A DNA stretch of 64,000 nt from the NCBI GenBank assembly GCA_964016885.1, contig OZ024745.1, positions 89,032,001-89,096,000 on the forward strand, in the 5' to 3' direction. The translations under genes were made by a program, and so were the position numbers. This DNA comes from Eledone cirrhosa. Taxonomy: Eukaryota. The notes below the pieces were generated by a model. That model was not told the DNA's origin, made no database searches, and saw only the letters and a list, made by a program, of their open reading frames with translations. Shown in pieces: positions 1,333 through 46,470 of the stretch; the first letter of the stretch is position 1; each line of letters opens with the position of its first letter.

Positions 1333-1925
1333 TAATTGCCTTATGTTGTTTATTACATAATAATAATAAATAAGCTCTGTTGCCTACATAGAGCACTCTT
1401 TTTTCCTGGACTTTTCCGATGGAATTACTTCATTCACACATATATATATATATATATATATATAGGTTCATGCTGTCATTACCACAGCAGAGGTCCGAAG
1501 AGCTTTTGATTCCAGAGTCGGGCCACATCGATACTGACCAAACCTTCAGCTGATCAATAGCGAAACGTGCGTCACCACTCAATAAACGTAATGAAGACAT
1601 AACAAATCGTCATTTTATTATTATTATTATTTTTGGCGACCTCCGTAGGAAATCGTATTATCGTGAGCTCCACAAAGGTTTGTTGTTTTCAGTTGTTTCA
1701 AATTGCCAGTTATGGAAAATTTTGTTGTTAAGCGTTTATAAGTTCACATATATTGATTTCTGAAAAGGACACTCAATAAAATTTAAATTTCTATTTATCA
1801 AACAAAATATTTCTTTGAAAAAAAACATGGACGACAAATCTCCTGTTTCTAACAGACTAACATCCCCCACCACCACCACCATTGTAAACCTTGCCCCGGT
1901 TGCCAACACTGAAAATATAATTAAT

Positions 1926-2111
1926 TGTTTCTACTTTAGGCACAAGGCCAGCAATTACCTAGTGCATCACTGGTACTTTATTTTATCGACCCCGTAAAGA
2001 TGAAAGGCAAAGTCAACCTCGGCGGGATTTGAACTCAGATCGTAAAGGGACGTAACTATGCTGGAAAGCATGGCGTCCGACCCTCTACCGATAATGCCAA
2101 TCCACCGCCCT
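1926..2111 (-). mobile_element. tRNA-derived SINE inserted into Tx1 copy 1 ORF1
   Basis: A-box TGGCATTATCGG, B-box GAGTTCAAATCC, central GCCTTTCATC..GGGGTCGATAAAATAAAGTACC (Meta-domain-like); 16-bp TSD TGAAAATATAATTAAT at 1910-1925 and 2112-2127. Confidence 0.92.
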
Positions 2112-4082
2112 TGAAAATATAATTAATAGCAGTCTCAATTATTTAGATTTGCCGCATACAGACATGGATTTCCCGCTATTACCAACAACTACAGGTGTTA
2201 AAGCCGCCATCCCCACCTTCACAATGTCAAAAAGAACAACCAACACCACTGATACCACCACCACCACCACCATCACCACCACAGCGACAACAGAAACAAA
2301 AAATAAATTATTATCTCGGGACATCGAAATGGATTCACCCAGAATCGACTCTTCTATGCCGAACATCACTGACATCACCACCACCACCACAACCGAAACT
2401 AAATTAACAATAACAACAACAGCAACAACAACAATGAGAATAACAACAACAACATCAACACCCGCGCAAAACAAAATAAGTCGTTTGCCAAAGCAGCCAA
2501 GAAAAGTGAAACAATCGAGGTAAGCCAGGATAAATTGAATGAAGCCAACCGAAGGGTAAAAATAGATAGGTACAGGGTCAGCCCCCCCCCCCCCACTCAT
2601 CTAATAAAATGGAGCATCGGCGCCTATGCACCGTGTCATATCGCACGATAGACACAAAATCACGCCGAGTGGAACGGGCATCCGAGTCCCAGATACAAAA
2701 AGCTTTGGGACATGTGTGGGCCAAAAAACCCACATCAGATGTGGGCAGAAATATGGAACTGTGGCCGTGTTCTTTGGAACACCACAGGAAGCTAGAGAGC
2801 ACTCCATGGCCCCATTAAGACGTGACGAGTTCACACTCGTCCCAAGCTATTGTGGTCAGAGACTCGTGAAGATCAGGGTGACCCACGTTCCGCCGGCCAT
2901 TGAAATTCCCTGGCTTATGGCTGCCGTCCTCGCCGACATTGAGGCCAACACTAAAATAATTGAGGTATCAAAAGTAAAGCAGGAGAACTGGTCCGGATCT
3001 GGGATGGAGCTCCTGATCCTAGCGGACCAAAATAAAATTGAGGATATTCCAGAGGTGATAGACCTCAATGATGGCAGCCACCTCACCGTAATCGTTGACG
3101 GTAGAGGCTTAGGTGTGTCGTTTGTGGCGAAGGAACCCCCCTTCCCACCAAAAGGATTTCTACCCTAAGGCTAAAAAGTTGGGGCCACCTTTCCTAGCCA
3201 CCCCAGTGACTCAACCATCAAAACTAGCAGCAGAAATGGCAGCAACAACTGTAGCAGCAACAACCCCAGCAACTGTAGCAGCATCAACCACAGCAACTGT
3301 AGCAGCAACAGTGGCAAAACCAACACCTCCACCACCCAACGCGCCAGAACTAGCACCAACGCCTCCACCATCCACCACGCCACAACTAAAACCAACGCCT
3401 GTGGAGGATTTTCCACTTCCCGACCTATCGTAACTGGAGACAGATTGTGTCTGCGAGGAGGAGTTGGAAACTGTATCTGGAAAAAAGAAAAAAAAAGAAC
3501 CCCAAAAAGAAAAAAATCCTCTTCCTTCGCCCTACAAAAACAAAATGCAGGGTGAAACAAACAAACTAACAAAAAGGTTAAGACAGCTATGTCCCCACCC
3601 ACACCACCATCACCAGCCCCATGACCACAAACACCAACATCATCACCATCATTAACCCCAACACCAACATCACCAACACCACAAAAATAACCAACAAGCG
3701 AAACAGAAACAAACTCACAACAAACGCAAAGAAAGCAAAACAACCAAAACGATATAAACTACACAGCATTAAATTTGAACAACAACCAATTATTACACTA
3801 CAGCCAACACAACACCAGCATCACAAAAAGATTTCATAAGACCACAAAAATTCATACCACCTCCACACATACAAATCACTCGCATCACACAGAAAACGTA
3901 CACGACACTAAAATTTAAATTCCCCAAGGACATGGGAGACATCCGACAAACACTCTCCAGGAGGATTTATAAGGACATCCTTCCGGAGGGGGCCACGAGC
4001 AGTGAGAAGGACAGAAAAACCATCCTTCCTCCACGAGAAGTGAAGTAAGTGATGTTTCCCATCTTTTGCCACTCCATTTCAA

Positions 4083-7000
4083 ATGACCTCACTCAGAATA
4101 GGCAACATAAATGCGCGTGGCCTGGGGTCATCATGGAAGAAGAGCCACCTGTTCAACGACCTCAGATCACTAAACATATATGTGGTGGCCATCAGCGAGA
4201 CCAGAATCTCTGAAGCACGAGCCTTCGCACCGATCTTCGGCGGCTACGGTGTATACGCATCTCCTAGCCGTCCTGGATCGGGTGGAGGAGTTGCTGTGCT
4301 TTTTCGGAGAGGCTTGGATCTCGCCATACGGGCCATCTTCCTGGACCTATAAGGTAAGTCGGTGGTGCTGGACGTGACCAGCGGAGACGGGCAAGCTTTC
4401 AGGTTAGAGGCCGTCTATGCCCCGACAGGAGCAGGGCGGCCTGATTTCTTCCGGCGTCTGGAGACCTTTCTTGGAACGTCCCGGTGTTAGTGTTAGTGGG
4501 CGACTGGAACGGGATCTTAGATACACGCTGGGACTGTGTGGGATTAGTGGATAGGGGAGGAGGGTGTAAAAGCCTAGCAAACCTTCTCGGACGGTTTCAA
4601 CTGTCTGACAGCTACCGTCTGGATTTCCCGAATGTGCCGATGTGGACATGGACAAACTGCATCGGGTCATCCAGATCATATCTAGATAGGGTGTTTTGTA
4701 GGGTAACAAATAGGTCTAACATAGGCTGTCCACATTTCAAAATAGTCGACTACACGGACCACAATTTCGTGATCTGTGAGGTTGACTTAGATAGGCTTCA
4801 TAGACAGGGACCCGGCTACTGGAAGCTAAACGCTTTGTTAACAGCGTGCAAGGCTTACAGAGACAGGATTAGCGAATTAGTTAAGCGGGCGTTGACGGGG
4901 GCCATCGTCAACAACAAATGGTGGTTTGCTCTGAAAAGAGCGATTAGAATAGAATCCATTAGGTTTAGTAAGGCTTTAGCAATAGAGAAAAATAGAGCAG
5001 AGGGAGAACTGGTTAGAAAATTAGACGAGACCGACGTACTTGACCAATTCTTCAATGCAAAGCACGAAGGCTGCGTTGTCAGAGCTAGGGTGCGTGCTCT
5101 CAGACACGAGGGGGCGAAAGCCGTTCAATGGGCCCGAGCAGCGGAGGCGCGTCGTGGCAACAAAGCTTCGATCCGGTCTTTGGTGGACCACGACGCGCGC
5201 ATGTTACTCGATCCCGGGCAAATCTGTGAAGCTTTTCAGCGACACGTCGCTCAGCTGTTCGGGGGCAGCGGTGGGCCGGATCGAGGGATGGGATTTAGTG
5301 CCTACCTCGACGGACTGCTGCGGCTCTCGCCAACTGAGGCAGAGTGTTGCGAAAAGCCGATAACAGCCGCTGAAGTACGGGAGGCAATGACTGGCTGCAC
5401 AAGGGGTAAATCGCCTGGTTTGGTTGGTCTGCCCTACGAACTTTACGTACACATGCCAGACTTCTTCGAAGGCCTCTTGGCGGACGTCTACTGCAACTGG
5501 CAACAGAGCGGGAGAATTCCAGCTCTGTGAGCCGAAGAGCGGTGGCGCTGCTGAGAAAGGATCTGAACAAGGAGGATAACATAGATAATTTCAGGCCCAT
5601 AACTCTGCTAAACACAAAGATCAAGATTTTGGCCAAGGTGCTAGCAAAGAGGTTGGCGCTTGTCGTTAGTGGTCTGGTGGGAGAGACGCTGACATGTCCA
5701 TTCCAGACAGATCCATCCACGACAACCTCCACCTCATGAGATACATCGTGGAGAGGGTAGCTAGGGAATCCGGCACGAGTGGGTCCTTGATCAATTTAGA
5801 TCAGTCGAAAGCTTTCGATAGGGTCGACCATCGTTATCTGACGGCAGTCCTGAGGGCGGCTGACTTTGGGCCCGTCTTCAGAGGCTGGATCGCTGCCATG
5901 CACAGCGATATCTGCTCTGTGGTGAGATTGAAAAGTCACCTTACTTAACCGTTCAACATCATGCGCTTGGTCCGCCAAGGATGTCACCTCTCGTCCCTGT
6001 TATACTTATTGACTCTCGAGCCATTACTGCACAAACTGGAGACGTTGAGGGAGGTCCCGCGCGAACTAGGATGCGGAAGATCCATGTCAGCATATGTGGA
6101 CGATGTCACCGTAGTGGTGTCGAACGCCAAACACATTGAGGCGATCGGCACTACACTAAGAGAATATGAAGCGGTGACAGGAGCAATGATCAACCAGGAA
6201 AAGTCGGTGGGCTTGCAGCTCGGCACCTGGAGAGGCAACAGCGTCCAACAGCGTCGTCGGGCGCTGGACGGACGGACCGGTTTAATTGCTAGGGGTCTGG
6301 TTCAGTCCGGACTTCCGGACAAAAACTGGGACGAGGTGACGAGCAGGGTGCCTTCTCTCACCTAGAAATGGGCAGAGAGGAGGCTATCCCTGAAAAGTAA
6401 AGAGGAGGTGGCGAATGCGTACATCGCGTCCGTCATCTACTACTACCTGAGCGTCGTGCCTTGTCCTAAGCCTCGCCTGACTGCGCTGGAACTTTTGCTC
6501 TTTTGCTTTTTGCGGCGGTCCATCTGCTGTCAACACCCGCTACCTGGAGGGCTGGGCACGACGTGGCCGATGATGCGGAGATACCTGCTCAGGCTACACC
6601 TCCACCTCTTCCTTGACGGTGATCAGGTGTGGTCGCCGTTTTCTAGACGCGTCTTTCCCTAGCTCATCTCCTTGACGGAGCTGCAGTCCTGTGTCAAGCG
6701 AAGACCGAGATGGAACGCTTGGAGACTGGAATGTCTTCAGGCGCTCACAGCCCTAGACCAGTCGAGCAATGTGATCGATGGAAACTTCACCTTGGCGTTC
6801 TATAGAGCATTAGTGGAGTGCTACAGAGGAGCTGTGCCAGTTTGGGATAAACTCTACATTCATTGAAGCGCCGTCAGCGAACATGTCCGAGATCCGCGCA
6901 AGGCGACGAAACCGTCCTGCCCGCACTCGTCCAGTGTCCGAACATTGCTGACTTGTGGGTTTATATCGAACACCTGCTGTCGCGTGTAGGACTGAACCGG

Positions 7001-7294
7001 CTATCAGCTGAGTTCATCGTGAGGATTTCCCCGCCTTCTTCCTTTAGCCGCGAAGGGCAGGCAGTTTTTATCTGTCTGATGACCATGGCGAAAGAGATAG
7101 TATGGTGGACGCGTTTGAAAGGGGTGAAGACGAGCACTTACCTCTTCGGTGATGCCCTGATTAACTTTTTCAAATTTCATTTGAAAAGGAAAATTAGGGT
7201 AGAGAGGGAAGTGCTCTCTTCGCAGCATTTTGTTGAAAGATGGTTGAGAGAATCAAGCATGGTCCGAGTAAATACTCTGAGTATGTGCCTGTAA
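4083..7294 (+). pseudogene. Tx1 ORF2 (APE endonuclease, RT, C-terminal CCHC), copy 1
   Basis: LRIGNINARGL, AISETR, VGDWNGILD, SYLDRVF, YTDH (APE); FRPITLLN, LINLDQSKAFDRVDH, VRQGC, SAYVDD (RT); stops, frameshifts and a deletion near 6817. Confidence 0.9.
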
Positions 7295-7576
7295 ATTGAA
7301 GGTGGAAAACAAAGACAGGGCACTTGCCCTGGTGGTCAGGTTCACCGTGGCTTTTTTAATGGGCTTTCTCCACGAATGTCCCTCGGAAGCCTCCACTCTA
7401 TTGGGGAATTTTTCATTGTTTCTTTTTGTTACATCCTCCGTTTTTGTTTTTTTACACGCAGAAATGCCCATTTGCACCGTCCTGTATGTCCTGTATTGTC
7501 CTTAATGTCTTACTTTGTGTAAACCCTTGTGGTTAATAAAGAAAGTATTATTATTATTATTATTATTGGTCTGTTC

Positions 7577-7667
7577 AAATCCTTTCCTTTCATCCTTACC
7601 GGGTCGATAAAATAAAGTACCGGTAATCTACTGGGTAATTGCTGGCCTTGTGCCTAAAGTAGCAACA
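7577..7667 (+). mobile_element. 5'-truncated SINE at the Tx1 copy1/copy2 junction
   Basis: B-box remnant plus SINE 3' half; flanked by direct repeat ATTATTATTGGTCTGTTC (7559-7576, 7668-7685). Confidence 0.85.
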
Positions 7668-7676
7668 ATTATTATT

Positions 7677-10600
7677 GGTCTGTTCGGACGTTCTTTTTGC
7701 TCGCTCCCAGTAAGTCGCTTTATTTGCCTGTTAAAATTATTTGTTGTTAAATATTTCTTGTTGTGTAAGTGATATATGCCCTTAGACTTTGCCCTGTGAA
7801 GGGGAAAGTATAATATTTGGGCCCTTTGGCCCAAATATTTAAACATTTTATTTGAAAAAAAAGAAATATGGCTGAGCCACGCCCCCCAGCAAGCAATATG
7901 TCTGGTGTCTTGTGACAACGGCGTAAAAGTTGAGAGGAGGGTTAGTGAAATTCATGCAGGAGCACCAACAACAAGACCAGTAGCGGCAGCAATAATGGTG
8001 ACGCTGAAAAAGGGGCCATTTCTTTCGCAGGTGTGGGCTGAAATATAGAGACAGTGCTAGTCACGGAGGAGGAGATGGCAGTCGCAAGAGCCATGGTGTT
8101 GAGAAACGAAAATAGAGTTTCCCTGAAACCTCCAACCGATTTCTTCAAAGACCAGCAACTGCGCACGGTGCCTTACCGCACCGTAAGCAAAATGTCAAAT
8201 CGGGTGGAGAGAGCCACGGAGGGCCTTGGAGTGCGACAGGGCACGCAAAACGCACATCACCCGAGGCAAAAAGTATGCCACACTATACGTACTTTTCGCC
8301 ACCCTCCAAGAGGCGAAGACTCACTCTTTGGAAACCTTAAAGAGTGAAGAGATAGTGTTGGTGCCCTCCTACTGCGGACAATTGTGAGTGTCAAAGTGAC
8401 CCAGGTCCCGCCCGACGTGGCCATACCTTGGCTGGCCGCGTCTGTACTGGCTGGAATCGAGAAGACCACCACACTGCAAATACAGAGAATGGGAAGAGAG
8501 AACTGGTCAGGAATAGGCATACAAATGATAATACAGACTGACTAAGGGTGCATCGAAGTCATTCCAGATATCATAGACCTAGAAGAAGGACTCCGACTCC
8601 CTATAAGCGTGGAAGGAAGGCGCCCAAAGTGCTATCTCTGCGAGCAGAAGGGTCACCTCAGGGCAGAAGACAGCCAAGAAGAGGGCTCACCCTCCTTCCG
8701 ACGCATGATCCGCTGCTACCGAGAGCAGGACAGGCAACAGGGGCAGAAGGCCCTTCCATGGTGAGTAGGACGGCAACGTTCGTGGAACCCATACAAAGGC
8801 CACCGAAACTAAAACAGCGGCAGCAGTGACGGCAACACCAACAGTCGCAGTAGCTACACCGTCGGCAAAATCGCCGGAGCGGGAAACACTACCACCACCA
8901 ACAGCAGTGGGGCGCACACCCCTCCCAGACGCCACGGAATCTGACATGGAGTATGAGTCGCGCAGGGAAGTGGCAAACGGTCTGCCACAAAAAACAAAAG
9001 AGGAAAAACACCTTAGCTTCACCCTCCAAAAGTGAAGGCAGACAAAGAGGTCTAAGCTCTGCAAGGAGACTTGCAGCAACACCACCACAAGCAACACTAC
9101 CAACAACAACCACACCAACAACACCAACATGGCAAACACAACAAAACACACACACCCAACAGCAACAAGAAAACAGCAACAAAGTCACCCCCCCCCCCCC
9201 CCCCAAAAAAAAGGTTCACAGCCATAAACATGGCAAATAAAGAACTCTTACAACATATAAAGCAGCACACAGACATCAGAGAAAAAAACTACTACACCCC
9301 ACCAACACCAAGAATTCTCCCGACAAACATAAGCATCGTTGAAATCAAAATAGAACAGTACACTTTTAAAACAAAAATTCCCCAACGCAGTTGGAGACTT
9401 CAGCAGGTCGGTTACCAAGAGGATATACACCGACATCCTCTTGGAAATACCCATGACCAGCCAAAGGGACGGTTCTACTGTACCCTCACCACACGATCAA
9501 GGTAAATGATCCTTTCTCACTTGCCCCGTTTCTCATCCAATATGGCCGTACTTAGAATAGGCAGTACGTGGCCTGGGGTCATCTTGGAAGCAGGGTCAAC
9601 TGCTCAACGACCTCAGGTCACTAAACATAGATGTGCTGGGCATCAACGAGATCAGAATTTCCGAAGCCTTCGCACCGATTTTCTGTGACTACGATGTATA
9701 CTCATCTCCCAGCCGTCCAGGATCAGGAGGAAGGGTGGCAGTGCTTTTTCGGAGAGGCTTGGATCTCGCCATACTGGCCATCTTCCTGGACACAGAAGGT
9801 AAGTCAGTGGTGTTGTACGTGACCTGCAGCGAAGGCAATGTTTTCAGGCTAGTAGCCGTCTACGCCCCAACTGGGGCAGGACGGCCAGATTTCTTCAGAC
9901 GTCTAGAGACCTTTCTTGGAACGTTCCGCACTTTAGTATTAGTGGGCGACTGGAACGGTATCTTAGATGTACGTTGGGATTATGTGGGGCTAGTAGACAG
10001 GGCAGGAGGGTTTCAAAGCCTCAACAACCTGCTCAGACATTTTAAACTGTCTGACAGGTATAGACTGGATTATCCGAATGTGCCAATGTGGACATGAGCA
10101 AACCGCATCGGGTCATCCATTTAGATAGGGTATTCTGTAGGGAAACAGATAAGGCTAGTGTAGGTTGTCCACAATTTAAAGTAGTCGCCTACACGGACCA
10201 CAAATTTGTGATCTGTGAAGTTACTTAGATAGATTCCATAGGCAAGGGCCCGGCTACTGGAAGCTGAACGCGTCGTTTCCGGCGCGCAAAGCTTACAGAG
10301 ACCGGATTAGCGAATTAGTTAAGCGTGCGTTGACGGGTGCGATCGTCAATACCAGGTGGTGGTTTACCCCGAAAAGGGCTGTTAGAGTAGAATCGATAAG
10401 GTTTAGCAGAGGAGTAGTGCCAGAGAAAAATATAGTAGTAGGAGAGTGAGTTAGAAAGCAAGAAGAGGCGTTTAGGAGAGGAATCGCAACCGACGAGCTT
10501 GCGGCGAGATTGGCACCCGACCAATTCTTCAACGCAAAGCATGAAGGCTGCGTTGTCAAAGCTAGAGCGCGTGCTCTAAGACACGAGGGGACGAAAGCCG

Positions 10601-13101
10601 TTCAATGGGCCCGGGTGGTGGAGGCGCGACGTGGCAACAAGTCCACAATTCGGTCTTTGCCTGATCAAAACGGGTGCATGTTGCTCGAATCCAAGCAGAT
10701 GTGTGCGGCTTTTCAACAGCACTTTGGTCAATTTTTGCGAAAGGCCGTTAACAGCAGGTGAAATACGGGAAGCGATGTCTGACTGCACGAGTCGTAAATC
10801 GCCAGGTTTGGATGGTCTGCCCTACGAGCTATATGCGTATATGCCAGACTTGTTCGGCGACCTCTTGGCAGATGTCTACTGTAACTGGCAGCAGAACGGG
10901 AGCATTACCAGTTTTGTGAGCCGGGGAGTGGTGGCGCTGGTGAGAAAAGACCCGAAGAAGGGGGAAGTTATAGACCACTTCAGGCCCATAACTCTGCTAA
11001 ACGCAGAGTTTAAGATTTTGGCCAAGGTGTTAGCTAAGAGATTCGTGGTTGTCGACGGTGATCTGGTGGGAGAGGCACAGAGATGCGCCATCCCGGACAG
11101 ATCCATCCTCCATCTCATGCGATACATCATAGAGAGGGTGGTTAAGGAACCTGGCACGGGTGGGGCCCTGATCAACTTGGATCAATCTAAAGTATTTGAT
11201 AGGGTCGACCATCGTTACCTGGCTGCGGTCCTCGAGGCGGCCGGCTTCGGGCCCGTTTTTAGGGGCTGGATGGCTGCGATGCACAGCGACACCTGCTCGA
11301 TTGTGAGGGTGAATGGTCACCTGTCACAGCCTTTCAGCACCATGCGCTCGGTCCGCCAAGGTTGCTCCCTCTCGTCCCTCTTGTACGTACTGGCCCTAGA
11401 GCCGTTACTGCACAAACTGGAGACGATTTGGCGGGGTCCCACGTGAACTGGGATGCTGGAGATCCGTGTCAGCTTACGCCCATGACGTCACCGTGGTGGT
11501 TTCAATCACCAAACACGTCCAGATGCTCGGCACCGCTCTCAAGGAATACGAAGCGGTGCCGAGCAAAGGTAATCCAGGAAAAGTCGGTGGGCTTGCAACT
11601 CGGCAACTGGAGAGGCAAGTCCATGCCGCCCGACAGCGTCGTGCGGCGCTGGACGGAAGACCTGTTAAATTGCTCGGTATCTGGTACAGTCCGGACCTCC
11701 AGATGGAGAAAAACTGGACCGAGTTTACGAGCAGGGTGGCCTCTCACACCCAGAAATGGGCCGAGAGGAGGTTGTCACTGAAAGGTCGGGCGGAGGTGGC
11801 GAATGCGTACATAACCTCCGTCATCTGCTACGGCCTGACCGTCGTACCTTGCGCCCTCCCACCTCTGACCAAAATAGAGTGCCTTCTTTTCCGCTTTTTG
11901 TGGAATGGACGTGCTCCTATGGTTAGACGATCCATTTGTTGTCAACAAGGAAGACTAGGCATGCCGTGGATGATGATGTCAAACATGCGCTGATGCTGCG
12001 ACATCTCTGGTGCTTCCTTGACGGTGAACAGGTGTGGTCGCCGTTTGCCAGACGCGCTTTTCCCCAGCTCGTCTCCTTGACGGAGCTGCAGTCCTGGATC
12101 AGGAAAAGACCGAGGGATAGCGCTTGGAAGCTGGAATGTCTCCAAGCGCTCATCGCCCTCTACCAGCTGGGCACTAGTATCGGTGGGACATCCACCTCGG
12201 CGTTCTAAAGAGGGCTAGGGGAGGGAAATAGCAACGACGTTATCGGGGAGACCCTGGGCGTCGAAGACGATCAGCTGTTCGCTCTCTTCAAGAGAACTTT
12301 CAGACCGGGGCCTATGGACAACTGCCAGACATCCCTGGCCTGACAGTGCTACTGGGGAGCGTTGCCGATTCGGGATGAGCTCTACAAGCTAGGAGGTTCT
12401 GTCAGCCGAACCTGTCCGCGATGCGCGCAGGGCGACGAAACCGTCCTGCACGCACTCGTTCAGTGCCCGAGGATTGCTGTCTTGTGGAGCTATGTCGAAG
12501 AGCTGCTGTCGCGTGTAGGACGGATCCGGTTATCGACTGAGTCCATTGTATAGTTAGCTTCTCCCTCCTCCTTTAAATAGGAGCAAGGGCAGGCAGTTTT
12601 CATCTGCCTGGTGGCCATGGCGAAAGAGATTGTGTGGTGGACAAGGTTGAAAGGGTTGAAGACTGACATTTTCCTCTCCAGCCAATCCCTGATTAACTTT
12701 TTCAAGTTTCATTTGAAGAGGAAAATCAGGGTGGAGAGTGCTGTCTTCTAGTAAGTTTGTTGAAAGGTGGGTGAAAGTAGCGAGTCTGGTCCGAGTGAAC
12801 GGGCCCGCTCTGAATATACGCCTGTAGACTGAGGAGTGGAAAAAATTGAGAGAAGGCGCTTGCCCTGGTGGTCAGGGTGGCCGTGGTCTTTTGTGTGGTT
12901 TTCACCACGAGTGACCCTCGGAGGTTTCCCCACTTCTTGGGAAATTTTGTTGTTTGAAATTTGTTGGATTTCTAGCCCGATTTTGTTATAACCTGTTTAC
13001 ACGACCAAAACCCACTTTGTATAGTCCTGTACTGTTCTGTGCCGTCTCTAATGTTTTTCTTCGTGTCAACCCGTGTGGCCAATAAAGAAACTATTATTAT
13101 T
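7677..13101 (+). mobile_element. Tx1/L1-clade copy 2, full length, decayed
   Basis: Leader from GGTCTGTTCGG, ORF1 ATG 7868 with zinc-knuckle remnant GRRPKCYLCEQKGH (~8615-8660), ORF2 9542-12827, AATAAA 13081, (ATT)n tail. Confidence 0.9.
9542..12827 (+). pseudogene. Tx1 ORF2, copy 2
   Basis: VYAP/VGDWNG (APE); KSPGLDGLPYELY, FRPITLLN, VRQGC, SAYAHD (RT, catalytic motif mutated); CPRCAQGDETVLHALVQC; multiple disruptions. Confidence 0.9.
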
Positions 13102-13104
13102 AAT

Positions 13105-13290
13105 GTGGATTGGCAGTATCAGTAGAGAGTCGGACGCCATGCTTTGACGCATGGAGTTACGGCCCTTGCCATTCTGAGTTCAAATCCCGCCGACGTTAAC
13201 TTTGCCTTTCATCCTTACGGGGTCGATAAAATAAAGTACCAGTAATGCACTGGGTAATTGCTGGCTTTGTGCCAAAAGTAGAAACAATTA
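13105..13290 (+). mobile_element. Near full-length SINE at the Tx1 copy2/copy3 junction
   Basis: Same family as 1926-2111; embedded in (ATT)n on both sides. Confidence 0.92.
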
Positions 13291-13304
13291 TTTTTATTAT
13301 TATT

Positions 13305-18690: not shown

Positions 18691-18691
18691 T

Positions 18692-21600
18692 TGAATGCTA
18701 TGGTTGACGGAGGCTCGTTTCTGTAAGGTATTGTAAATTTTGACCGCTATAACAATTGTAAATTGTTTAAAACTTTATCCAAATTGTAGACAAAAACACC
18801 CTCCTCCTCGCGAGAGGGGTCTTTCTGCACGTTATTTGGCCCTTCGGGGTTAAATAACCGCTTATTGGGGTTTTGTGCCCAATATTTATTTTAAACCCAA
18901 AAAAAACATGGCGACGAATAAGAATTTTCATAGGTCACTCCCACTCATTCCGTCTTCTTCTTCCTCAATCCTCACTACAGCAGAGAGAAGATTGTCTCTC
19001 TCCCTCCGTTCTCTTTCGCAAGCGACGCCAGTAAAGAAAAATCACGTAGAAAGCGTGCAACATTTCTCCACAACGGCGAAAAAGGTGTGCGGGAAATACG
19101 AAAACCCATTTCATTCGTCTGATGTCATGAATAATAGCAGTAGCAGCCGTAATAACAGCAGCACCAGCAACAGTGACAAGGAAAACAACAGTAGCAACCG
19201 CAAAAGCATCAGCAGCAGCATAAACAACAACAGCATTAGCAGCAACAGCAACAACAACAGCAGCAGCAGCAACAACAACAACAACCACAGCAACAGCGGT
19301 CGCGGCAGTAGTCGTAGTACCTGCAGCAACAACAAAAGTAACAGCAGCTCTGACGACAACAACAACAACAACAGCAGCAGCAGCAAATAAAAACCAATCT
19401 CGTTTGCAGGTATCGCAAAGAACCTGGAAACCATCCTCATAACAAATGAGGAATTACAGGAAGCGAAGAAGATGATGACGAAAACCGGACACCGAGCAAT
19501 CTGCAAGGCAGCCGAAATATTTTTCGAAACCCAACAGCACTGTACGGTCACTACCGTAGATTAAGCACAAAATCCCGTAGGGTTGAAAGAGCCACAGAGG
19601 CTCAAATACAAAAAGCCTTAGGGTCTGTGTGGCAGCGGAAAACGCACATCACCCCAGGCAAGAAATATGCTACCGTAGACGTGCTTTTTGCCACACCCCA
19701 GGAGGCAAAGGCTCAATCCTTAGTGACCCTAAGGAGCGAGGAAATGGTGTTGGTGCCCTCATACTACGGGCAAAAAATTGTGAAGGTGAAACTGACCCAC
19801 GTCCCCGTCCCCCCGGGATGGCCCCTTCTTGGCTGGCCGCGTCTGTCCACGTCGGAATCGAGGACTAAACAACTGTACTGCAAGTACAAAAAAAAGTAAG
19901 AGAAGATTGGGTCGGCACCTCCATTGAGATGTTAATCCAAACCAACCAGGAGTGCATCGAAGCTATCCCGGATGTGTTAGACTTCGATAACGGCACTCAA
20001 CTGCCCATAAGTGTTGAGGGCAAACGCCCGAAATGCTTTCGCTGTGGTTCGAAGACTCACCGCAGAGCCTTCTGCACCTAGGCCCCACGGCTACCAGCAA
20101 CAGGACAAGCGGCAACCAGGAACGATAGGTCCGTGGCACCCATACGCACGCCACGGAAATCAAGAAGAGCAGCAGCAGTGGAAGTATTAACAACAACAAC
20201 AGTAATACCAAATGTAGCTGCAACAGTGACTCCACTGCAAACATCACCAACAACAACAAGTGAAAGAGTGGAGCTGGTACCCCTCCCCGACCTCACAGAA
20301 TCAGACATGGAGTGTGAGGTGGGAGAGGGATGGCAAAAGGTCGTAAGAAGGCACAAACGCAGAAGCAGCGCATCGTCGCCTTCGAAAAGGGAGGAAAGAA
20401 ATGAAAAAAGGGTAAAGGCTACTGCAAAGAGACTCACAGCAGCAACACCACCAACACCATCACCACCCACACTAGCACAACCATTACCACCGGCGACAAC
20501 CCCACCGCCAACAACAACAACACCTTCAACACCACCACCGTAAGCACCAACATCGCAAACACAACAACAAAACACACACACCCAGCAACAACGACAAGAA
20601 AATAGCAGAACCACACCCCACCCCCAGAAAAACAAATGCACGGCAATAAATACACACAACAAGAAACTAATGACTTACATAATTGAACACACAGACATTT
20701 CACAGCACGACTACATAATACCAGCACCAATCAAAACGCCAACGAACATTTGACTGCTAAAATAGCACAGAAACAATACACAAACATTAAAACGAAATTC
20801 CCCAACGCAGTTGGTGATTTCAGAGACCTAGGAGGGACTCTCAACCGGAGAGTATATTCGGACATACACATAGAAGAGCCGACGACCAGCTGAAGGGACG
20901 ATTCAATGGTCCCTTCACCAGACGATCAAGTGAAAAGTGATGGAGAAACCATCCTTCCTCTACGAAAATTACGGTAAGTGGTCTTTCCCATCTTTTCCAC
21001 TCCATTTTAAACATTACCTCACTCAGAATAGGCAGCATAAATGCGCGTGGCTTGGGGTCGTTATGGAAGTAGGGCCACCTGCTCAACGACCTCAGGTCAC
21101 TAAACATAGATGTAGTGGCCATCAGCGAGAACAGAATTTCCGAAGCACGGGCCTTAGCACCGATCTTCGGCGGCTACGATGTGTACGCATCTCCGAGCCG
21201 TCCTGGATCGGGAAGAGGAGTTGCTGTGCTTTTTCGGAGAGGTTTGGATCTCGTCATACGGGCAATCTTCCTGGATCCAGAGGGTAAGTTGCTGGTGCTG
21301 GACGTGACCAGCGGAGACGGGCAAGCTTTCAGGCTAGTGGCCTTCTATGTCTCTCTCAAGAACAGGGCGGCATGATTTCTTCCGGCGTCTGTAGACCTTT
21401 CTTGGAACGTCCCGCTCTTTAGTGTTAGTGGGCGACTGGAACGGGATCTTAGATGCACGCTGGGACTGTGTGGGATTAGCGGATAGGGGTGGAGGGTGCA
21501 AGAGCCTCACCAACCTACTCAGGCTTTTTGAACTGTCTGACAGGTACCGATTGGATTTCCCGAATGTGCCAATGTGGACTTGGACAAATCGCATAGGGTC

Positions 21601-24600
21601 ATCCAGATCATATCTAGATTGAATATTTTGTAGGCCAATAGATAGGTCTAGCATAGGCTGTCCACAATTCAAGATAGTCAGCTACACGGACCACAAATGG
21701 TCTGTGTGTTTGGCTTAGATAGGCTTCATAGACGAGGACCCGGCTACTGGAAGCTAAACGCGTCCTTACCAGCGCGCAAGGCCTACAGAAACTGGATTAG
21801 CGAACTAGTTAAGCGGGCTTTGACGGGGCCATCGTCAACAACATGTGGTGATTTGCTCTGAAAAGAGCGATTATAATTGAACCCATTAGGTTTAGTAAAG
21901 CTTTAGCAATAGAGAAAAATAGAGCAGAGGGAGAACTAGTAAGAAAATTAGACGAGGCGCTTAGCAAAGGCAACGCGACCGACGTGCTTGCGGCGAAATT
22001 GGCCCTTGACCAATTCTTCAATGCAAAGCACGAAGGCTGAGTTGTCAGAGCTAGGGTGCGTGCTCTCAGACACTAGGGGACGAAAGTCGTTCAATGGGCG
22101 CTAGTGGCGGAGGCGCGTCGTAGCAACAAAGCCACGATCCGGTCTTTGGTGGACCACGACGGGCGCATGCTACTCGATCCCTGGCAAATGTGTGAAGCTT
22201 TTCAGCGACACTTCGCTCAGCTGTTCGACGGCAGCGGTGGGCCGGGTCGAGGGATGGACTTTAGTGTCTACCTCGACGGACTGCCGCGGCTCTCGGCCAC
22301 TGAGGCGGAGTGTTGCGAAAAGCCGATAACAGCCGCTGAAGTACGGGAGGCAATGACTGGCTGCACAAAGGGTAAATCGGCTGGTTTGAATGGTCTGCCC
22401 TATGAACTTTACGTACAGATGCCAGACTTGTTCGGAGGCCTCTTGGCGGACGTCTACTGCAACTGGCAACAGAACGGGAGAATTCACAGCTCTGTGAGCC
22501 GAGGAGCGGTGGCACTGCTGAGAAAGGATCCGAACAAGGGGGATAACATAGATAATTTCAGGCCCATAACTCTGCTAAACACCGAGTTCAAGATTTTGGC
22601 CAAGGTGCTAGCAAAGAGGTTGGTGCTTGTCGTTGGTGGTCTGGTGGGAGAGGCGCTTACATGCGCCATTTCCGACAGATCCATTCACGACAACCTCCAC
22701 CTCATGCGATACATCGTAGAGAGGGTAGCTAGGGAACCTGGCACGGGTGGGTCGTTGATCAATTTAGATCAGTCGAAAGCTTTCGATAGGGTCGACCATC
22801 GTTACCTAGCGCCATCCTCAGGGCGGCTGGCTTTGGGCCCGTCTTCAGAGGCTGGATCGCTGCCATGCATAGCGACATCTGCTCTGTGGTGAGAGTAAAC
22901 GGTCACCTTTCGGAACCGTTCACCATCATGCGCTCGGTCCGCCAAGGATGTCCCCTCTCGTCCCTCTTGTACCTATTGACTCTCGAGCCATTACTGCACA
23001 AACTGGAGACGTTGAGGGGCGTCCCGCGCGAACTAGGATGCGGAAGATCCGTGTCAGCATATGCGGACGATGTCACCGTAGTGGTGTCGAACGCCAAACA
23101 CATCGAGGCGATCAGCACTACACTAAGAGAATACGAAGCGGTGACAGGAGCAATGATCAACCATGAAATGTCAGTGGGCCTGCAGCTCGGCACCTGGAGA
23201 GGCAGGTCCATGCCGTCCAACAGCGTCGTCGGACGCTGGACAGACGGACCGGTTAAATTGCTAGGGGTCTGGTTCGGTCCGGACCTCCAGACGGACAAAA
23301 ACTGGGACGAGGTGACGAGCAGGGTGGCTTCTCTCACCCAGAAATGGGCGGAGAGGAAGCTATCGCTGAACGGTCGAGCGGAGGTGGCTAACGCGTACAT
23401 CGCGTCTGTCATCTGCTACCGTCTGACCGTCGTAGTTTGACCTAAGCCCCACCTGACTGCGCTGGAGCGTTTGCTCTTTCGCTTTTTGTCGAAGGGACGC
23501 GCTCCGATGGTCAGGCGGTCCATCTGCTGTCAACACCCGCTACGTGGAAGGCTGGGAATGCCGTGGGTGATGATGCGCAGACACGCGCTCAGGCTACGAC
23601 ATCTCCACCTCTTCCTCGACGGTGATCAGGTGTGGTCGCCGTTTCCTAGACACGTTTCCCCAGCTCGTTTCCTTGACGGAGCTGCAGTCCTGGGTCAAGC
23701 GAAGACCGAGAGGGAGCGCCTGGAGACTGGAATGTCTTCAGGCGCTCACAGCCCTCGACCAATCGGGCAATGTGATCGGTGGAAACTCCACGTCGGCGTT
23801 CTATAGAGGATTAGTTGAGGGGAAGTGCGACGACGTGGAAACTCTAGGCGTCGACGAAAATCAACTAGCCAATCTCTTTGGAAGAACTTTCGGGCCGGGA
23901 CCTATGGACAACTTCCAGAAATCTCTGGCCTGGCAGTGCTACCGAGGAGCCTTGCCAGTTCGGGATAAACTCTACAGGCATGGAGGTGCCGTCAGCCGGG
24001 CATGTCTGAGATGCGCGCAGGGCGACGAAATCGTCCTGCACGCACTCGTCCAGTGTCCGAAAATTGCTGACTCGTGGGTTTATGTCGAACACCTGCTGTC
24101 GCGTGTAGGACGGATCCGGCTATCATCTGAGTCCATCGTGAGGATTGCCTCGCCCTCTTCCTTTAGCCGGGAAGGGCAGGTAGTTTTTATCTGTCTGGTG
24201 GCCATAGCTAAAGAGATAGTATGGTGGACACGTTTGAAATGGCTGAAGACGAAAACTTACCTCTTCGGTGATACCTTGATTGACTTTTTCAAATTTCATT
24301 TGAAAAGGGAAATCAGAGTAGAGAAGGAAGTGCTCTCTTCCCAGCATTTTGTTGAAAGATGGTTGAGAGAAGCAAGAATGGCCCGAGTGAATGGGCCTAC
24401 TCTGAGTATATATCTGTAAATTATAGGTGGAAAACTGGGAGAAGGCACTTGCCTTAGGTGGTCAGGGTCACTGTGGCCTTTTACTGGGCTTTCTCCACAA
24501 ATGTCCCTCCGAAGACTCCCCCCAATTGGGGAATTTTTCATTGTTATTTTTTTGTTACATCCTGTTTTTGTTTTTTACACGCAGCAATGCCCATTTGTAC

Positions 24601-24687
24601 CGTCCTGTATTGTCCTGCACTGTCCTTAATGTCCACTTTATGTAAACCCTTGTGGTTAATAAAGAAATCATTATTATTGTTGTTATT
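18692..24687 (+). mobile_element. Tx1/L1-clade copy 4, full length, decayed
   Basis: ORF1 ATG 18908, CCHC knuckle GKRPKCFRCGSKTHRRAFC (~20018-20075); ORF2 ~21013-24419 with start mutated to ATT; AATAAA 24658; (ATT/GTT)n tail. Confidence 0.9.
21013..24419 (+). pseudogene. Tx1 ORF2, copy 4, closely similar to copy 1 ORF2
   Basis: Complete APE-RT-CCHC motif series including VRQGCPLS and SAYADDVT; several stops and frameshifts. Confidence 0.9.
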
Positions 24688-27600
24688 CCTTGAATCTCAG
24701 TCATTGATGTTGGTTAACTGGAAAGTCCGTTGGATTGAATATCAAGCCACTACCTGCAGCCTCAGATATTCAGGACGTATCGGAGGGTTCTTGCTGTTCC
24801 AAGCAAGCATGCCTTTTGAAGCGTTCCAAAAAGCGTGAAGGGCCCGATTTTCTTTAACCATCCCTGGAAACTTTTGGAGATAGTCCCCAGTGCGCCTATG
24901 ACAATCGGGATCACTTTGACTTCATGGCAGTTCCACATCCTTTTCACCTCCCACTTTAGGTCCTGGTATCGGTTAATTTTCTACCTCTCCTTCTCTTGCA
25001 CTCTCGTGTCGAACGGGCAGGCCACATCCACAATCAGACACGATCTTTTTTCTTTGTCCACAACCACCAGGTCAGGTCTATTGTGTTCCAGTTTTTTGTC
25101 CGTCTGTATCCTAAAATCCCACAGCACCTTCACCTGATTGTTCTCCATCACCGCCTCTGGCCTATGCTCATACCATTTCTCAGAATGTGGTAAATTGTTT
25201 ACTTTGCACAGGTGCCAGTGGATCACCCTGCCCATCACATCGTGTCTCCAGCCCTTATAGTGGGTCTGGGCTAGGTGTTTACACTCGGACACAATATGAG
25301 CCACAGTCTCCTCTCTCTCTCCACAGATCCTGCACAGTGGGCTAGCCTCCTCCTTGTAAATATGGTGCTTCAACCACTTCGTTTTGAGGGCCTGCTCCTG
25401 CGCAGCCATTAGCATTCCTTCTGTACCCTTTTTGAGGTCTCCTCTTCTCAACCAGTTCCATGTCTGTGGATCTCTAAATTCAGTTTTCTCAAAGAAGGTA
25501 CTATGAAGGGATTTTCCCTTAAGGCTGCTCTTCCTCCTTGATGTTATTTCCTCCTTGGACATGCCCAGGCCTACTGTCCCCTCCTTCAGTACAGTTCTGA
25601 GCATTGGCTCCTTACCATAGGTCACGTATTTGTATAGGTTGTTTTTCTCCATCTGAACACAGTCCTCTATGCTGATAAGACCTCTTCCACCCTCAGATCT
25701 CCTTAGGTAGAGTCTATCGACATCACTCCTCTTGTGGAACATGTTGTAGATAGTCAATAGCTTCCTAGTCTTCCTATCCATTTCTTTTTGTTCAGCAACA
25801 TTCCATCTCAGAATTCCCGCACTGTACCTAATAATAGACACAGCTCGGGAATTTACTGCGCTTATGGCATTTCTGCTGTTCAGATGTGACTTCAATACGC
25901 TCCTTACTCTCCGAATGTATTCAGTTCTTAACAATTCCTTCATTTTTTTGTTCTTTATGCCATCAGCCTCCAGAACGCCCAAATACTTGTATCCTTCCTC
26001 AGAGTCAATTTCCTTTATCATCTCACCTGTTGGTATCTGGATCCCGTTACTTCTGCTCAACCTACCCCTCCTCATCACAATGACTCCACATTTACCAATA
26101 CCAAACTGCATACATATATCACTGCTGAAAATACGGACAGTGTCAACAAGCACATCCAACTCCTTCTCACTTTTCCTGAAGAGCTTAAGATCGTCCATGA
26201 AGAGGAGGTGATTGATGGTAAGCTCTCCCCTTCCCAACTTGTATCCTGCTCTCACTTTTCGCAGCATAATGGTCAAGGGCATCAGGGCAAGGACAAACAA
26301 CAGAGGGGACAGGCTATCTCCCTGGAAGATACCTCTCTTGATCTTCACGCTTCCCAAGGATACTCCAGTTGATGTCAACTCTGTCTCCCAGGACCCCATA
26401 ATCCTGCCTAGCAACTGTCTGATGTTATCTGCCACCCTGAAGATCTCCAGGCTTTTGGTGATCCAAGAATGAGGCACCATGTCAAATGCCTTTCTGTAGT
26501 CTATCCATCCCATGGCAAGATCAGTGTGTCTCCTCCTGCAATTCCCCATTACCATCTTATCAATAAGTAACTGGTCCTTTGTACCACGTGACTTCTTTCG
26601 GCATCCTTTCTGTTCGTCCGGTAACAAGTTGTTTGTGTAGAGGTGATGGTAGATTTCCTCAGACACAATGCTCGTCAACAGTTTCCACATTACGGACAGA
26701 CATGTGATAGGTCTATAGTTGGTAACATCATTACCCATGATTCGGTCTTTCATTATCAGAACTGTGGTACCTTTTGTCAACCACTCTGGCACCTCACCCG
26801 ACACCAAGCAGTCATTGAACATGGCCGTCAGCTTCGGGTGGAGGGATGTTAAATGTTTAATCCAATACCCCTGCACACCATCTGGGCCTGGTGATTTCCA
26901 GTTGGTTAGTTTTTTGGCCTGCCCCTTAAGAGTTTCAACTGTGATACTCAAATCAGTTTGTTGTTGTGCCTGCTCACCGATCTCCCTCTGTACTGTCTCA
27001 ATCCACCCTGCCTGGACATTATGTCTAACATCCTGCTCCCATATTCCTCTCCAGAATGTTTTAGTTTGCTCCGCCCCAGGGATCAAGTCGTTGCCTCTTT
27101 CTTTCCCCTCAAGCTGTCCAAACAGCATCTTCTGGTTGTTGTCGAACATGCGGTTCTGTTTATACTGACTGACTCTGTTCTCGTATCGCCTGATTTTTGC
27201 ACTCTTTGCTACAATGCGTTGCTTCAGTTCCTCTATGATAATATTTTGCTTTTTCCTCCTAGTTTTGTATTTTATTTCCAGTCTATTTTTAGTGCCTATG
27301 TTTTTTAGTGTCCCATTCAGTAGTGACTCAAGCTTTCCTATGTCATTTCTCATTTCCCCGATTTGCCCACTCAGTCGCTTCTTCCACCACAGCTCTGCTC
27401 TTTCTTGTCTGTTGCTTCCTATCGCTTTTATACCAAGTAGTTTCCTCACCGTATTTGCTGTTGCTTTGAGGATATTGTTGCACTGGTGAAGGCTCCTCGC
27501 CTCAAGGTATGGGATGACTTTGTTTACCTTAGCTGTTGTTTCTTTTAACTTTTTCCTGTCTACAAATCTTAGGTTCATAGGTCTCCCACTATCATTGTTC

Positions 27601-28290
27601 AATTCATCTACCACTAAATTTAGGATGTCAACCGAATCTTGTCCTAGCCCGTCAGCATTCATCTCCTCAGTGGCCGTATCTCTGTTCCAGGTATTATTTA
27701 TCTCAGTATTCAGATCATTGTCTGCTTCGGGTGGTTCCTCCGTTCTCAGGACCTCTTCACCTTCATTTCCCACTGGCTCGCTTGTCTGGCATACTACACC
27801 CGCCATCTCCAAGCCATTCTCTCTGCTCAGTTCCTCCAGTTCCAGCTCGCTTATCCACCCATTAGTTCTTATTACCCGAGCCTGCCCGGCCAATTTTTGT
27901 TCATCTAATTTAAATAAACCAATCTCGTTCCAGATGTTATGCATCCGTCTCCTGTAGCCCCTCTCCTTGGGGTTACTTTTCAGGTAACATTGCATAGCAG
28001 TTCTATTCAATTCTTTCGTCCAGTTGGTTCTGGCCCCTTTCCTTCTTCTCCTTCCTCCAACATCAGCAGTATTTGGTTGACAGTCAGGTTCCTGCTGCTG
28101 AGCCAGGGGGCACCTGTTGGGTGAGAGTCTGTCACATGACGTTCTAGTCTCCATTTCACCGTTATTCGAACTGTTTATGTTCGATATTTAAACACTCTTA
28201 TCGAGGATTGGCGAATGTATGGTTACATAGCCATCTGTGGATCCGCCATTCCACTTGGCCCTTGTGTGGCATTATCACCACGCTGTATAC
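24688..28290 (-). mobile_element. R4/Dong-clade non-LTR retrotransposon (RT plus restriction-like endonuclease)
   Basis: Single ORF, no APE domain; 3' end abuts (TAA/CAA)n on its sense strand; Dong-type elements are established TAA-repeat targeters. Confidence 0.88.
24762..28154 (-). CDS. R4/Dong polyprotein; 1057 aa open, then one in-frame TAG (24981-24983) before the last ~70 aa
   Basis: N-terminal WTKELN..YRRRMHNIW domain; KSPGPDG, YRPITCL, IDYRKAFDMVPH, GIFQGDSLSP, LFMDDLKL; CRICGEREETVAHIVSEC; RHD; RPDLVVVD..IVDVACP (PD..D RLE); in-frame continuation YQDLKWE..VIPIVIGALG. Confidence 0.88.
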
Positions 28291-28329
28291 TAACACACAT
28301 AAACAAACAAACACACAGGCAGAAAGGGC

Positions 28330-29212
28330 CCCCAAAATGAATAAGCATAAGTTTCATCGTAATGTAGTGTTCGAATGTCTGACTTAGTTTTTGTTTTTTA
28401 AGTTTTAGTTTTCCCCCCTCTTCTCTGTCCGTCCGCCTGCTTCTCTCTTCATTCTTATTTTCTTTACGTTTTTGGGTTTTTTTTTGTTTTTTTTGTTTTT
28501 CTCTGTTTGTTTTTCTCGTTTTTTGCTGTTGTTGCTGTGCTGCTTTGGTTTTGTTGTTGTTTTTTCTTTTTTCTTTTGAGTCTATCTATATATTTTGATG
28601 CCTTCCTCTTTTTTAGCAGTAGGGATTCTATAATGTGGTGGCAGCAGCCAGCTGAGAGAAGTGGGTGACTGGCGGCGGTAGCGATACTGAGACAGTGGTG
28701 GTGGTGATGTCGATACCGAGGCAGTGGTGGCGGTGATGTGACCGTATTACTGTAGTGATGGTGCTGTGGCGTTGGTAGCAGTGAAGGAGTGAAGGGGTGG
28801 TGGCGGCGGTGATGGGATAATGGTGGTAATGATGGCCGTAGTGAGCGGTGGTGGTGAAAATGCCGTTATCTGGCTGTTGTGTTTAGTGTACACAGGTGAT
28901 GGGGTGGGTGGTGTATCTAGTTTCTGGTGTTGGTGAGTTTGGCTGTTCTATATAGTGTAGACAGAGGAGAGGGGGTGTTCTTCTTCCATTTATAGCCATT
29001 TTCTTTTTTGGATATACAGTGTACAATACAAAGTTGAATATTTGAATGTTTGAGCCTTATAACAATATATTTTGGGTCCGAATTTTTTGGGGCTCAAGCC
29101 GTGTGCTTTACGTAGCATTTGTACTAAGAGTTGTTATTTCACAAATGATTTAAATATGTTAAAAATTCAAAACTTACGGGAGCGATTTCATGACCTCCGT
29201 CACCTCGTGCGT
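28330..29212 (-). other. Tx1-like 5' leader plus degenerate ORF1-like low-complexity region upstream of the Dong element
   Basis: 213-nt leader, A-run before ATG at 28999 (MAINGRRTPPLLCLHY, compare copy 3 MAEPRPPATCLLSY), TCGCTCCCGTAAGT shared with copy 2/3 leaders, then T/P-rich and A-rich tracts. Confidence 0.55.
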
Positions 29213-29234
29213 CTTCTTCTTCTTCTTCTTCTTC

Positions 29235-29273
<39 letters not shown>

Positions 29274-29276
29274 TTA
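29213..29276. repeat. (CTT)n(ATT)n microsatellite
   Basis: Seen directly. Confidence 0.95.
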
Positions 29277-29280
29277 AATG

Positions 29281-29548
29281 TCGGTGGATTGAAAGTATCG
29301 GTAGAGGGTCGGATGCCATGCTTTGACGTATAGAGTTACGGCCCTTGCCATTCTGAGTTCAAATCCCGCAGTATCGGTGGAGGGTCGGACGCCATGCTTT
29401 CCAGCATAGTTACGTCTCTTTACGATCTGAGTTCAAATCCCGCCGAGGTTGACTTTGCCTTTCATCCTTACGGGGTCGATAAAATAAAGTACCAGTAATG
29501 CACTGAGTATTTGCTGGCCTTGTGCCTAAAGTACAAACAATTATTATT
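29281..29548 (+). mobile_element. SINE with a duplicated tRNA head (two subfamilies joined)
   Basis: Head to B-box 29281-29368, then a second head and complete body to the ATT tail. Confidence 0.88.

Positions 29549-46425: not shown

Positions 46426-46466
<41 letters not shown>

Positions 46467-46470
<4 letters not shown>

Follow-up and report, generated by a model that had tools for sequence, protein, structure and literature searches.

Tx1-type LINEs, a Dong/R4-type element and SINEs joined at ATT tracts in the octopod Eledone cirrhosa

The window analysed here is a stretch of 64,000 nucleotides from Eledone cirrhosa (contig OZ024745.1, positions 89,032,001 to 89,096,000), and part of it is an array of retroelements joined at ATT tracts. 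The core of this array consists of four co-oriented long interspersed nuclear elements (LINEs; E1 to E4), one inverted element of the type that carries a restriction-like endonuclease (RLE), along with short interspersed nuclear elements (SINEs) at three junctions (Table 1). A first-pass annotation of the same DNA had proposed an array of four co-oriented Tx1-type LINEs, one Dong element and junction SINEs; this anatomy is confirmed at 1632-29550, all four Tx1-type copies lying on the plus strand within 1632-24669. Each copy measures 5.4-6.0 kb and comprises an AT-rich 5′ untranslated region (UTR) of ~200 nt, a decayed first open reading frame (ORF1) and then an ORF2 coding for an apurinic-type endonuclease (APE), a reverse transcriptase (RT) and a zinc finger. 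The 5′ ends assigned to E2-E4 are backed by a GTAAG motif at a like offset in all three (+32 to +34) and in two relatives (+38). E1 has only GTAGG at +14, and its exact 5′ end is placed with less certainty. Splice-donor-like GTAAG or GTAAA motifs at +32 to +38 of the 5′UTR (window 7710, 13336, 18723 and, on the minus strand, 29177) are seen again at the ORF1/ORF2 boundary (4046, 9501, 15438, 20975).

Table 1. Features of the array in window coordinates, with the LINE-bearing contigs of bin G001 (see text) in the last row. Breaks and deletions of E1-E4 are counted against P0002, a relative of 912 amino acids (aa).
Feature	Position	Strand	Remarks
(TTA)5-6 tract	1612-1631	+	Flanks E1 5′ end
E1, decayed L1/Tx1-type LINE	1632-7545	+	5′UTR; ORF1 from ~1828; ORF2 4083-7294; 5 stops, 5 frameshifts, 41-aa deletion
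SINE S1 in E1 ORF1	1926-2111	-	16-bp target duplication 1910-1925 / 2112-2127; AT-rich non-repeat site
(ATT)7 tail of E1 and 9-nt copy of E2 first bases	7546-7576	+	9 nt: likely S2 target duplication
SINE S2, 5′-truncated, (ATT)3 tail	7577-7676	+	Likely inserted later than E2
E2, decayed L1/Tx1-type LINE	7677-13091	+	ORF2 ~9542-12827; 4 stops, 6 frameshifts, 31-aa deletion
E2 (ATT)3 tail, SINE S3 (13103-13286), S3 ATT tail (13287-13304)	13092-13304	+	
E3, decayed L1/Tx1-type LINE	13305-18670	+	5′UTR 82% like E2; ORF2 15480-18422; 153-aa RT deletion at 16811; 6 stops, 4 frameshifts
ATTATTATTT x2, E3/E4 joint	18671-18690	+	
E4, least decayed copy	18691-24669	+	CX2CX4HX4C ORF1 at 20034; ORF2 ~21010-24419, 87-89% like E1; 4 stops, 3 frameshifts
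Imperfect (ATT)6, common to E4 (+) and Dong (-) 3′ ends	24670-24687	.	
Dong/R4-type element	24688-28268	-	ORF 28187-24765, 1,141 codons; one in-frame stop 24981-24983; RT, C-x2-C..H..C finger, PD..D restriction-like endonuclease motif
Segment X	28268-29211	-	Multi-copy, without long ORF; Tx1-like 5′UTR, GTAAG at +35; probably Dong 5′ part, else separate remnant
(TCT)8 then (TTA)14	29212-29276	+	(TCT)8 at 29212-29236
SINE S4	29277-29550	+	Extra head 29277-29369, fused with a second copy at 29370-29539; 29540-29550 is the ATT tail
LINE-bearing contigs of G001	C3-C15, C17-C19		L081-L117, L122, L127, L132-L166

The four Tx1-type copies had been described as full length. They are indeed 5′-complete, but not intact: each carries 4-6 stops and 3-6 frameshifts, E1, E2 and E3 have lost coding sequence as well, and all four are dead. 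An altered genetic code, considered as the cause of the missing long ORFs, was dropped, since frameshifts and deletions are among the breaks, which also vary from copy to copy. Pairwise dN/dS is below 1 in all six pairs (0.24-0.31 in five of them; 0.57 for E1/E4, bootstrap 0.43-0.78), dS rises to 0.8, and no stop is shared. Thus tandem duplication of one dead copy is ruled out for E1-E4, in line with the earlier judgement that the copies are too divergent for it, and the history of local tandem duplication that would have overturned that annotation is contradicted. The stops at 12208, 12553, 16235 and 17163 are private, the other copies differing there in >99% of the depth of public run X1. 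E4 shows about half the private amino-acid changes of E1 (19 of 249 conserved codons, 7.6%, against 34 of 264, 12.9%), and the two therefore differ in age. Taken together these data support independent serial insertion of E1-E4. Judged by alignment, the divergence of the copies is also a mosaic, in which 5′ modules and ORF2 have different kinships: E1 and E4 are 87-89% alike over ORF2 and 3′UTR and do not share 5′UTR/ORF1, E2 and E3 are 82% alike in the 5′UTR and only 70-73% in ORF2, and the ORF1s of E2 and E4 are 63-69% alike.

Twenty public runs in 15 studies contain parts of positions 20000-29700, and no RNA data set is among those listed. Three of these runs, all from one sample that may be the source of the assembly, contain at least half of the words. 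Contigs were compared for 4 of 24 listed runs over positions 12000-29700, with the junction at 18665-18695 passed over as repeat; raw reads of run X22 gave low-complexity matches only. The contigs listed for runs X4 and X8 lie ~4-6% from E3/E4 and 0.7-2.7% from the Dong element (8 pieces per run), which makes Dong the youngest LINE. Crude ages that include species differences are roughly 10-15 My for E3/E4 and under 8 My for Dong, at a rate by which a distance of 0.09 equals 25 My (PMC13282606).

All 23 plus-strand matches of the window to ATTATTATT are confined to nine tracts within 1617-29548, and each tract marks the boundary of an element. Both strands together hold 27 matches, against 2.39 expected from shuffles, and three of the four on the minus strand are SINE tails at 46.5-47.7 kb. 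Outside the array, (ATT)3 was found within 15 nt upstream at 0% (plus) and 0.19% (minus) of 20,500 positions. The Tx1-type copies have ATT tracts at 4/4 of their 5′ ends and 4/4 of their 3′ ends, and the latter read AATAAA(T)-GAAA(G/C/TC)-(ATT)n with poly(A) in none, as the first-pass annotation had it. Its further claim that every boundary is an (ATT)n tract holds for both ends of all four copies, but not for the 5′ boundary of Dong, which abuts (TCT)8 with ATT beyond, nor for SINE S1, whose boundaries lack ATT. Joints are exact within 20 nt, and new elements start exactly at ATT tails, not inside the 5-6 kb bodies, with S1 as the sole exception. The letters that follow AATAAA in E4 (GAAATC) equal those of its neighbour E3, unlike those of its closest relative E1 (GAAAGT); with two informative sites only, this is a small hint that the stretch may be target-derived, as expected of target duplication.

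The inverted element has a single ORF that matches RVT_1 (E 9e-23) and gave no APE match. A finger, CRICGEREETVAHIVSEC, and a nuclease motif, RPDLVVVD..IVDVACP, were read in its translation; an RT with such a finger and a PD..D motif fits the R4/Dong type. Its 3′ end lies in an imperfect (AAT)6 and its 5′ end is set off from (TAA)14 by (GAA)8. E4 and Dong are opposed on the same ATT/TAA tract, which agrees with the proposal that an APE and an RLE element use one microsatellite from opposite strands. Segment X, upstream of the Dong ORF, resembles the 5′UTRs of E2 and E4 (1 of 300 shuffles each; 21 pairs tested). The depth of run X1 declines gradually between the Dong 3′ end and this segment (774k, 235k, 125k, 74k), and that of X4 is level. 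Dong with segment X measures 4,524 bp and Dong alone 3,581 bp, the former being nearer to 4.2 kb, the mean length that we computed from Table 1 of PMC13282606 for near-full-length Dong-R4 insertions of O. vulgaris. We lean towards segment X being Dong's own 5′ part. A Tx1-like 5′UTR ahead of the Dong ORF might represent promoter capture between LINE clades. Rfam gave no ribozyme match near threshold in segment X.

The SINE is ~190 bp long; besides the three junctions it occurs as an inverted copy inside E1, and the window holds about ten copies or pieces in all. Box-like motifs were seen by eye, ARAGORN and Rfam found no tRNA in it, and no family name for it appears in the accessible text or supplements of PMC4824008. 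Among seven distinct 5′ flanks in the window, five are an ATT tract or near-tract (S2, S3, S4, S9, S10), so that landing on ATT is a preference and not a strict specificity. The left flank of S2 repeats the first 9 nt of E2, and thus S2 likely landed at an existing joint of ATT tract and 5′ end, later than E2. ATT-tailed SINEs also stack tail-to-head at other loci: in run X1, for which the best 15 of 8,144 joints were listed, 158 contigs join SINE tail to SINE head, and 1,034 loose ends before a SINE head give an A/T-rich consensus with low agreement (0.46). Elsewhere in the window, SINE dimers joined at the ATT tail lie on the minus strand at 46460-46765 and 47380-47910, within a local duplication of ~300 bp, and a SINE at 43408-43603 ends in (TA)n.

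The closest named ORF2 proteins are those of the octopod Argonauta hians, 56-73% identical over the query. A quick RT tree of 81 rows, from which E3 (RT deletion) and P0245 (too short) were left out, joins the window copies, the Argonauta proteins, P0002 and P0383 in one clade (SH-aLRT 100). Sister to it stands a clade (99) of LINEs from a bacterial genome bin, G001; the two together reach 100, and deeper placement is weak. Pieces of E1-E4 match the APE family PF03372 at E 8e-6 to 4e-3, two of the four above the curated cut-off, and the relative P0383, intact at 1,111 aa, matches it at E 2e-12; RVT_1 was found in E2 and E4, and zf-RVT in E2-E4. Human L1 ORF2p is a stronger match to the relative P0004 (E 9e-63) than R2 is (1e-27). 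The marks of the L1 group are present, namely an N-terminal APE and an RT followed by a C-terminal zinc finger that is L1-like, not R2-like. So is the Tx1-clade mark of a CCHC knuckle in a separate ORF1 (type I ORF1; PMC5203782), as CX2CX4HX4C in E4 and in part in E2. All four ORF1s align to ORF1s of G001 (best E 8e-7 to 3e-4), which match zf-CCHC (E 1e-5 to 2e-3); the ORF1s gave no match to a ZCCHC3-type RRM, and protein searches returned none of the named Tx1 proteins Tx1L, Keno, Kibi and Koshi. E1-E4 likely belong to the Tx1 clade proper. Among 65 distant relatives with downstream sequence, an A-run of at least 10 occurs in 13 and an (ATT)3 match in four, none of them after AATAAA-GAAA. Metagenome proteins among the matches listed are relatives at 23-36% identity, although that collection also contains the close relative P0383; viral contigs gave no close copies with flanks, and the ESM Atlas yielded generic APE-RT clusters only.

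A scan of prokaryote genomes led to G001, a bacterial bin titled Arenicella that contains 16 small contigs of eukaryote-like DNA, likely mis-binned animal DNA from contamination by a host. They hold 77 LINE ORF2 matches, the relatives being 43-44% identical to the window copies, and decayed Dong relatives as well. The LINE units are mostly intact, 6.4-6.8 kb long and co-oriented within each contig, and over all 16 contigs they form head-to-tail arrays of up to ~12 units. Out of 67 3′ ends, 57 run into the next ORF1 start, three into a truncated copy and four into host DNA, and three lie at contig ends; poly(A) was seen in 0/67 and two ATT units in one. AATAAA is followed by a linker of 10-20 nt, with at least eight different linkers and none ATT. 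An (AT)n stretch that resembles a tail is not the element end, which lies ~200 nt further on. In contig C18 the 16 nt past AATAAA repeat the host sequence that lies to the left of the first unit. ORF2s are 99.3-100% identical within a contig and the 5′/ORF1 modules differ by 15-32% in C7, C15 and C19, so that on alignment the G001 arrays appear to share the 5′/ORF1 module swapping of the window. GTAAG or GTAAA also stands directly past the ORF2 stop of G001 units. Over 36-42 nt, the 3′ end of the window SINE and the G001 LINE end are 81% alike (E 7e-4), a nearness found in 6/6 comparisons at ≤17/300 shuffles, which suggests a partner within the lineage of the G001 and window clades. Since head-to-tail stacking in the sister clade involves no ATT, arrays in this lineage do not depend on the microsatellite; stacking looks like a trait of the lineage, and ATT like the landing site used in this host.

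We consider it probable that the stack arose by separate target-primed insertions, each newcomer landing at the 3′ end, with its ATT, of an element already present, and the site being duplicated and renewed. The nick made by the endonuclease would in such a scheme fall on the (AAT)n strand, shortly downstream of the AATAAA of the resident element. With the RNA end cleaved 10-30 nt past AATAAA, a few AUU units could pair with the nicked strand and fix the orientation; RNA-target pairing has been proposed for SART1 and R1Bm (PMC7265360). A 10-20 bp duplication at insertion would renew the landing site, and the earlier claim that each insertion leaves a fresh one was judged supported. The SINE would likely borrow enzymes of the Tx1 lineage, and Dong, equipped with a restriction-like nuclease of its own, may read this tract from the opposite strand.

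Several observations weigh against this reading. The evidence for ATT flanks in these Tx1 families comes from one locus and four copies. The ATT enrichment is partly circular because the repeat belongs to the 3′ ends themselves, and in three of four cases what flanks a Tx1 copy at its 5′ end is the tail of the preceding element; the start of elements at tails is the non-circular part. S1 landed at a non-repeat site, the flank of S6 is without ATT, and the SINE tail is weakly like the ends of E1-E4 (2/24 pairs at ≤5/300 shuffles). In C18 the element end and the host site do not match, and RNA pairing was therefore not required there. The linker tracks the 5′ type downstream of it in 5/5 joints of C15 and 4/4 typed joints of C7, which together with the near-identity of ORF2s within contigs points to expansion of the G001 arrays, at least in part, by recombination or unequal exchange. 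The C19 array ends without a clear duplication, and binning may over-represent arrayed copies. A broader reading is tentative and on balance doubtful: the two clades may form a previously undescribed L1/Tx1 lineage whose elements seek out each other's 3′ ends. Such a lineage would have lost poly(A), would build arrays of full-length elements joined head to tail, would use them to swap promoter and ORF1 modules on a common ORF2 and would perhaps have given a 5′UTR to Dong, the octopod landing site being (ATT)n, shared with the SINE and Dong, and that of the sister clade any 10-20 nt past AATAAA.

Strict specificity of the Koshi/Kibi type, with an APE that cuts any (AAT)n and arrays as a by-product of ATT tails, would account for ATT on both sides of 4/4 copies in one orientation. 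Published Tx1 families target (TC)n, (TTC)n, (TTCC)n or (TTTC)n, target choice reportedly resting mainly with the endonuclease (PMC4494074), the ATT end is particular to this family (0/65 distant relatives have ATT after AATAAA-GAAA), and an ATT-specific endonuclease in a Tx1 family is possible. The tracts are, however, short (3-7 units) and each is the tail of an element, stacking in the sister clade involves at least eight linkers and no ATT, and the likely passenger SINE also enters imperfect sites (S1, S6); we regard strict specificity as unlikely. Passive accumulation, in which ATT is merely an encoded tail and elements gathered in a repeat-rich region of low recombination merely abut, is improbable. 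The remaining window does consist of repeats (gypsy-type and Helitron-like remnants, a 15-kb satellite) and repeat hotspots are known in O. vulgaris (PMC13282606), but random insertion would mostly strike the 5-6 kb bodies, as only S1 did, and would hardly give co-oriented joints of such exactness. Concatemers that arose all at once, through template jumping or through co-mobilisation by read-through, would suit the retention of the 5′UTR in 4/4 copies although summed contig depth (which is not copy number) declines by a factor of ~5 to 11 toward the E3 and E4 5′ ends; the different ages of E4 and its sister E1, and the origin of the copies from different lineages, make them very improbable. 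Local tandem duplication of one copy, at which the likeness of the E1 and E4 ORF2s and the near-identical neighbours in G001 might hint, can hardly be credited in view of the dN/dS and dS values, the unshared stops, the different 5′ modules and the fact that the closest pair, E1/E4, are not neighbours.

The rest of the window holds further repeats. A 27-bp satellite (571 copies, 90% matches) runs from 48578 to the window end at 64000, and its open frame of 3,565 codons is the repeat itself (N/Y/S/I/C/L). On the minus strand (32068-33278) lies an RT fragment with DUF6451, after which a 95-bp unit is repeated 3.4 times, every repeat having a histone-3′-like stem-loop (Rfam E 0.002-0.15, below the gathering score). 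Between 33300 and 38900 lie a Helitron-like fragment of a PIF1 helicase, on the minus strand, and a gypsy-type long terminal repeat element in decay (DUF7041, RT-RNase H). Upstream of E1, 1520-1611 carries AATAAA and a CTGA..CGAAAC motif reminiscent of a Penelope-type end; Rfam found nothing there, with no Penelope hammerhead match near threshold. Among the relatives, the P0097 cluster has five members on one 26-kb contig, and P0240-P0242 and P0244 are gene models with 3-8 repeated RT stretches in turtle, pseudoscorpion and alga; both hint at further tandem LINE arrays.

Microsatellite-targeting Tx1 elements, TAA-targeting Dong elements and double-insertion arrays are already published. Tx1 elements are known to target (TC)n, (TTC)n, (TTCC)n, (TTTC)n, U2 and transposons, among other sites, SINEU-3 copies in tandem enclose a duplication between them (PMC4494074), Dong targets TAA repeats (PMC3812793), and double insertion renews the target (10.1101/158386). 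Octopus genomes are rich in L1-Tx1 and Dong-R4 elements (PMC13282606, PMC9115989, PMC8967140) and in SINEs (PMC13282606). We found no account of where these octopus elements insert, the accessible parts of the same three papers giving no target data. Nor did we find an ATT-targeting or cephalopod target-specific Tx1 in the literature, Repbase and subscription journals lying outside the scope, and Fig. 3 or the supplements of PMC4494074 may list one. New here are the long sister-clade arrays of intact elements without ATT or poly(A), and near-identical ORF2s with differing 5′/ORF1 modules. If true, a common self-renewing ATT landing site would explain local pile-ups of repeats and would count as a new target for Tx1. 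The sister clade, with intact elements, near-identical enzymes and different junctions, is a natural system for weighing endonuclease against RNA end in site choice, and is also suited to the question of how LINEs replace promoters and ORF1.

The nearest parallels to the array are the fish Tx1 elements Koshi and Kibi and the crocodilian Tx1 elements of (TTCC)n and (TTTC)n (PMC4494074; PMC3812793), likewise L1-group APE-RT LINEs lying in a short microsatellite in fixed orientation. Compared with Koshi and Kibi, the target here would be (ATT)n and its tracts the tails of other elements, a likeness drawn from one locus. The Dong element shares a single ORF, an RT, a restriction-like endonuclease motif and 3′ (TAA)n with Dong of Bombyx, DongAg, DongBg and octopus Dong-R4 (PMC3812793; PMC13282606; PMC9115989), and differs in ~1 kb of 5′ sequence with a Tx1-like 5′UTR, in (GAA)8 at the 5′ joint and in its seat in a Tx1-type tail. 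The double-insertion tandems of Drosophila R1, jockey and P (10.1101/158386) and of SINEU-3/Tx1-Mar (PMC4494074) are also head-to-tail with a duplicated target that stays available, and their later expansion by unequal exchange resembles that in G001; here, by contrast, one site serves three element classes and several lineages, and the LINEs are 5′-complete. Zepp and ZeppL of green algae (PMC8226300) are L1-group LINEs that likewise land at existing copies and build clusters. Zepp arrays, however, are centromeric and made mostly of 5′-truncated 3′ ends, whereas elements in the window and G001 stand end to end and 5′-complete, with a 5′UTR in 4/4 window copies and 57 of 67 G001 3′ ends leading to a complete ORF1 start.

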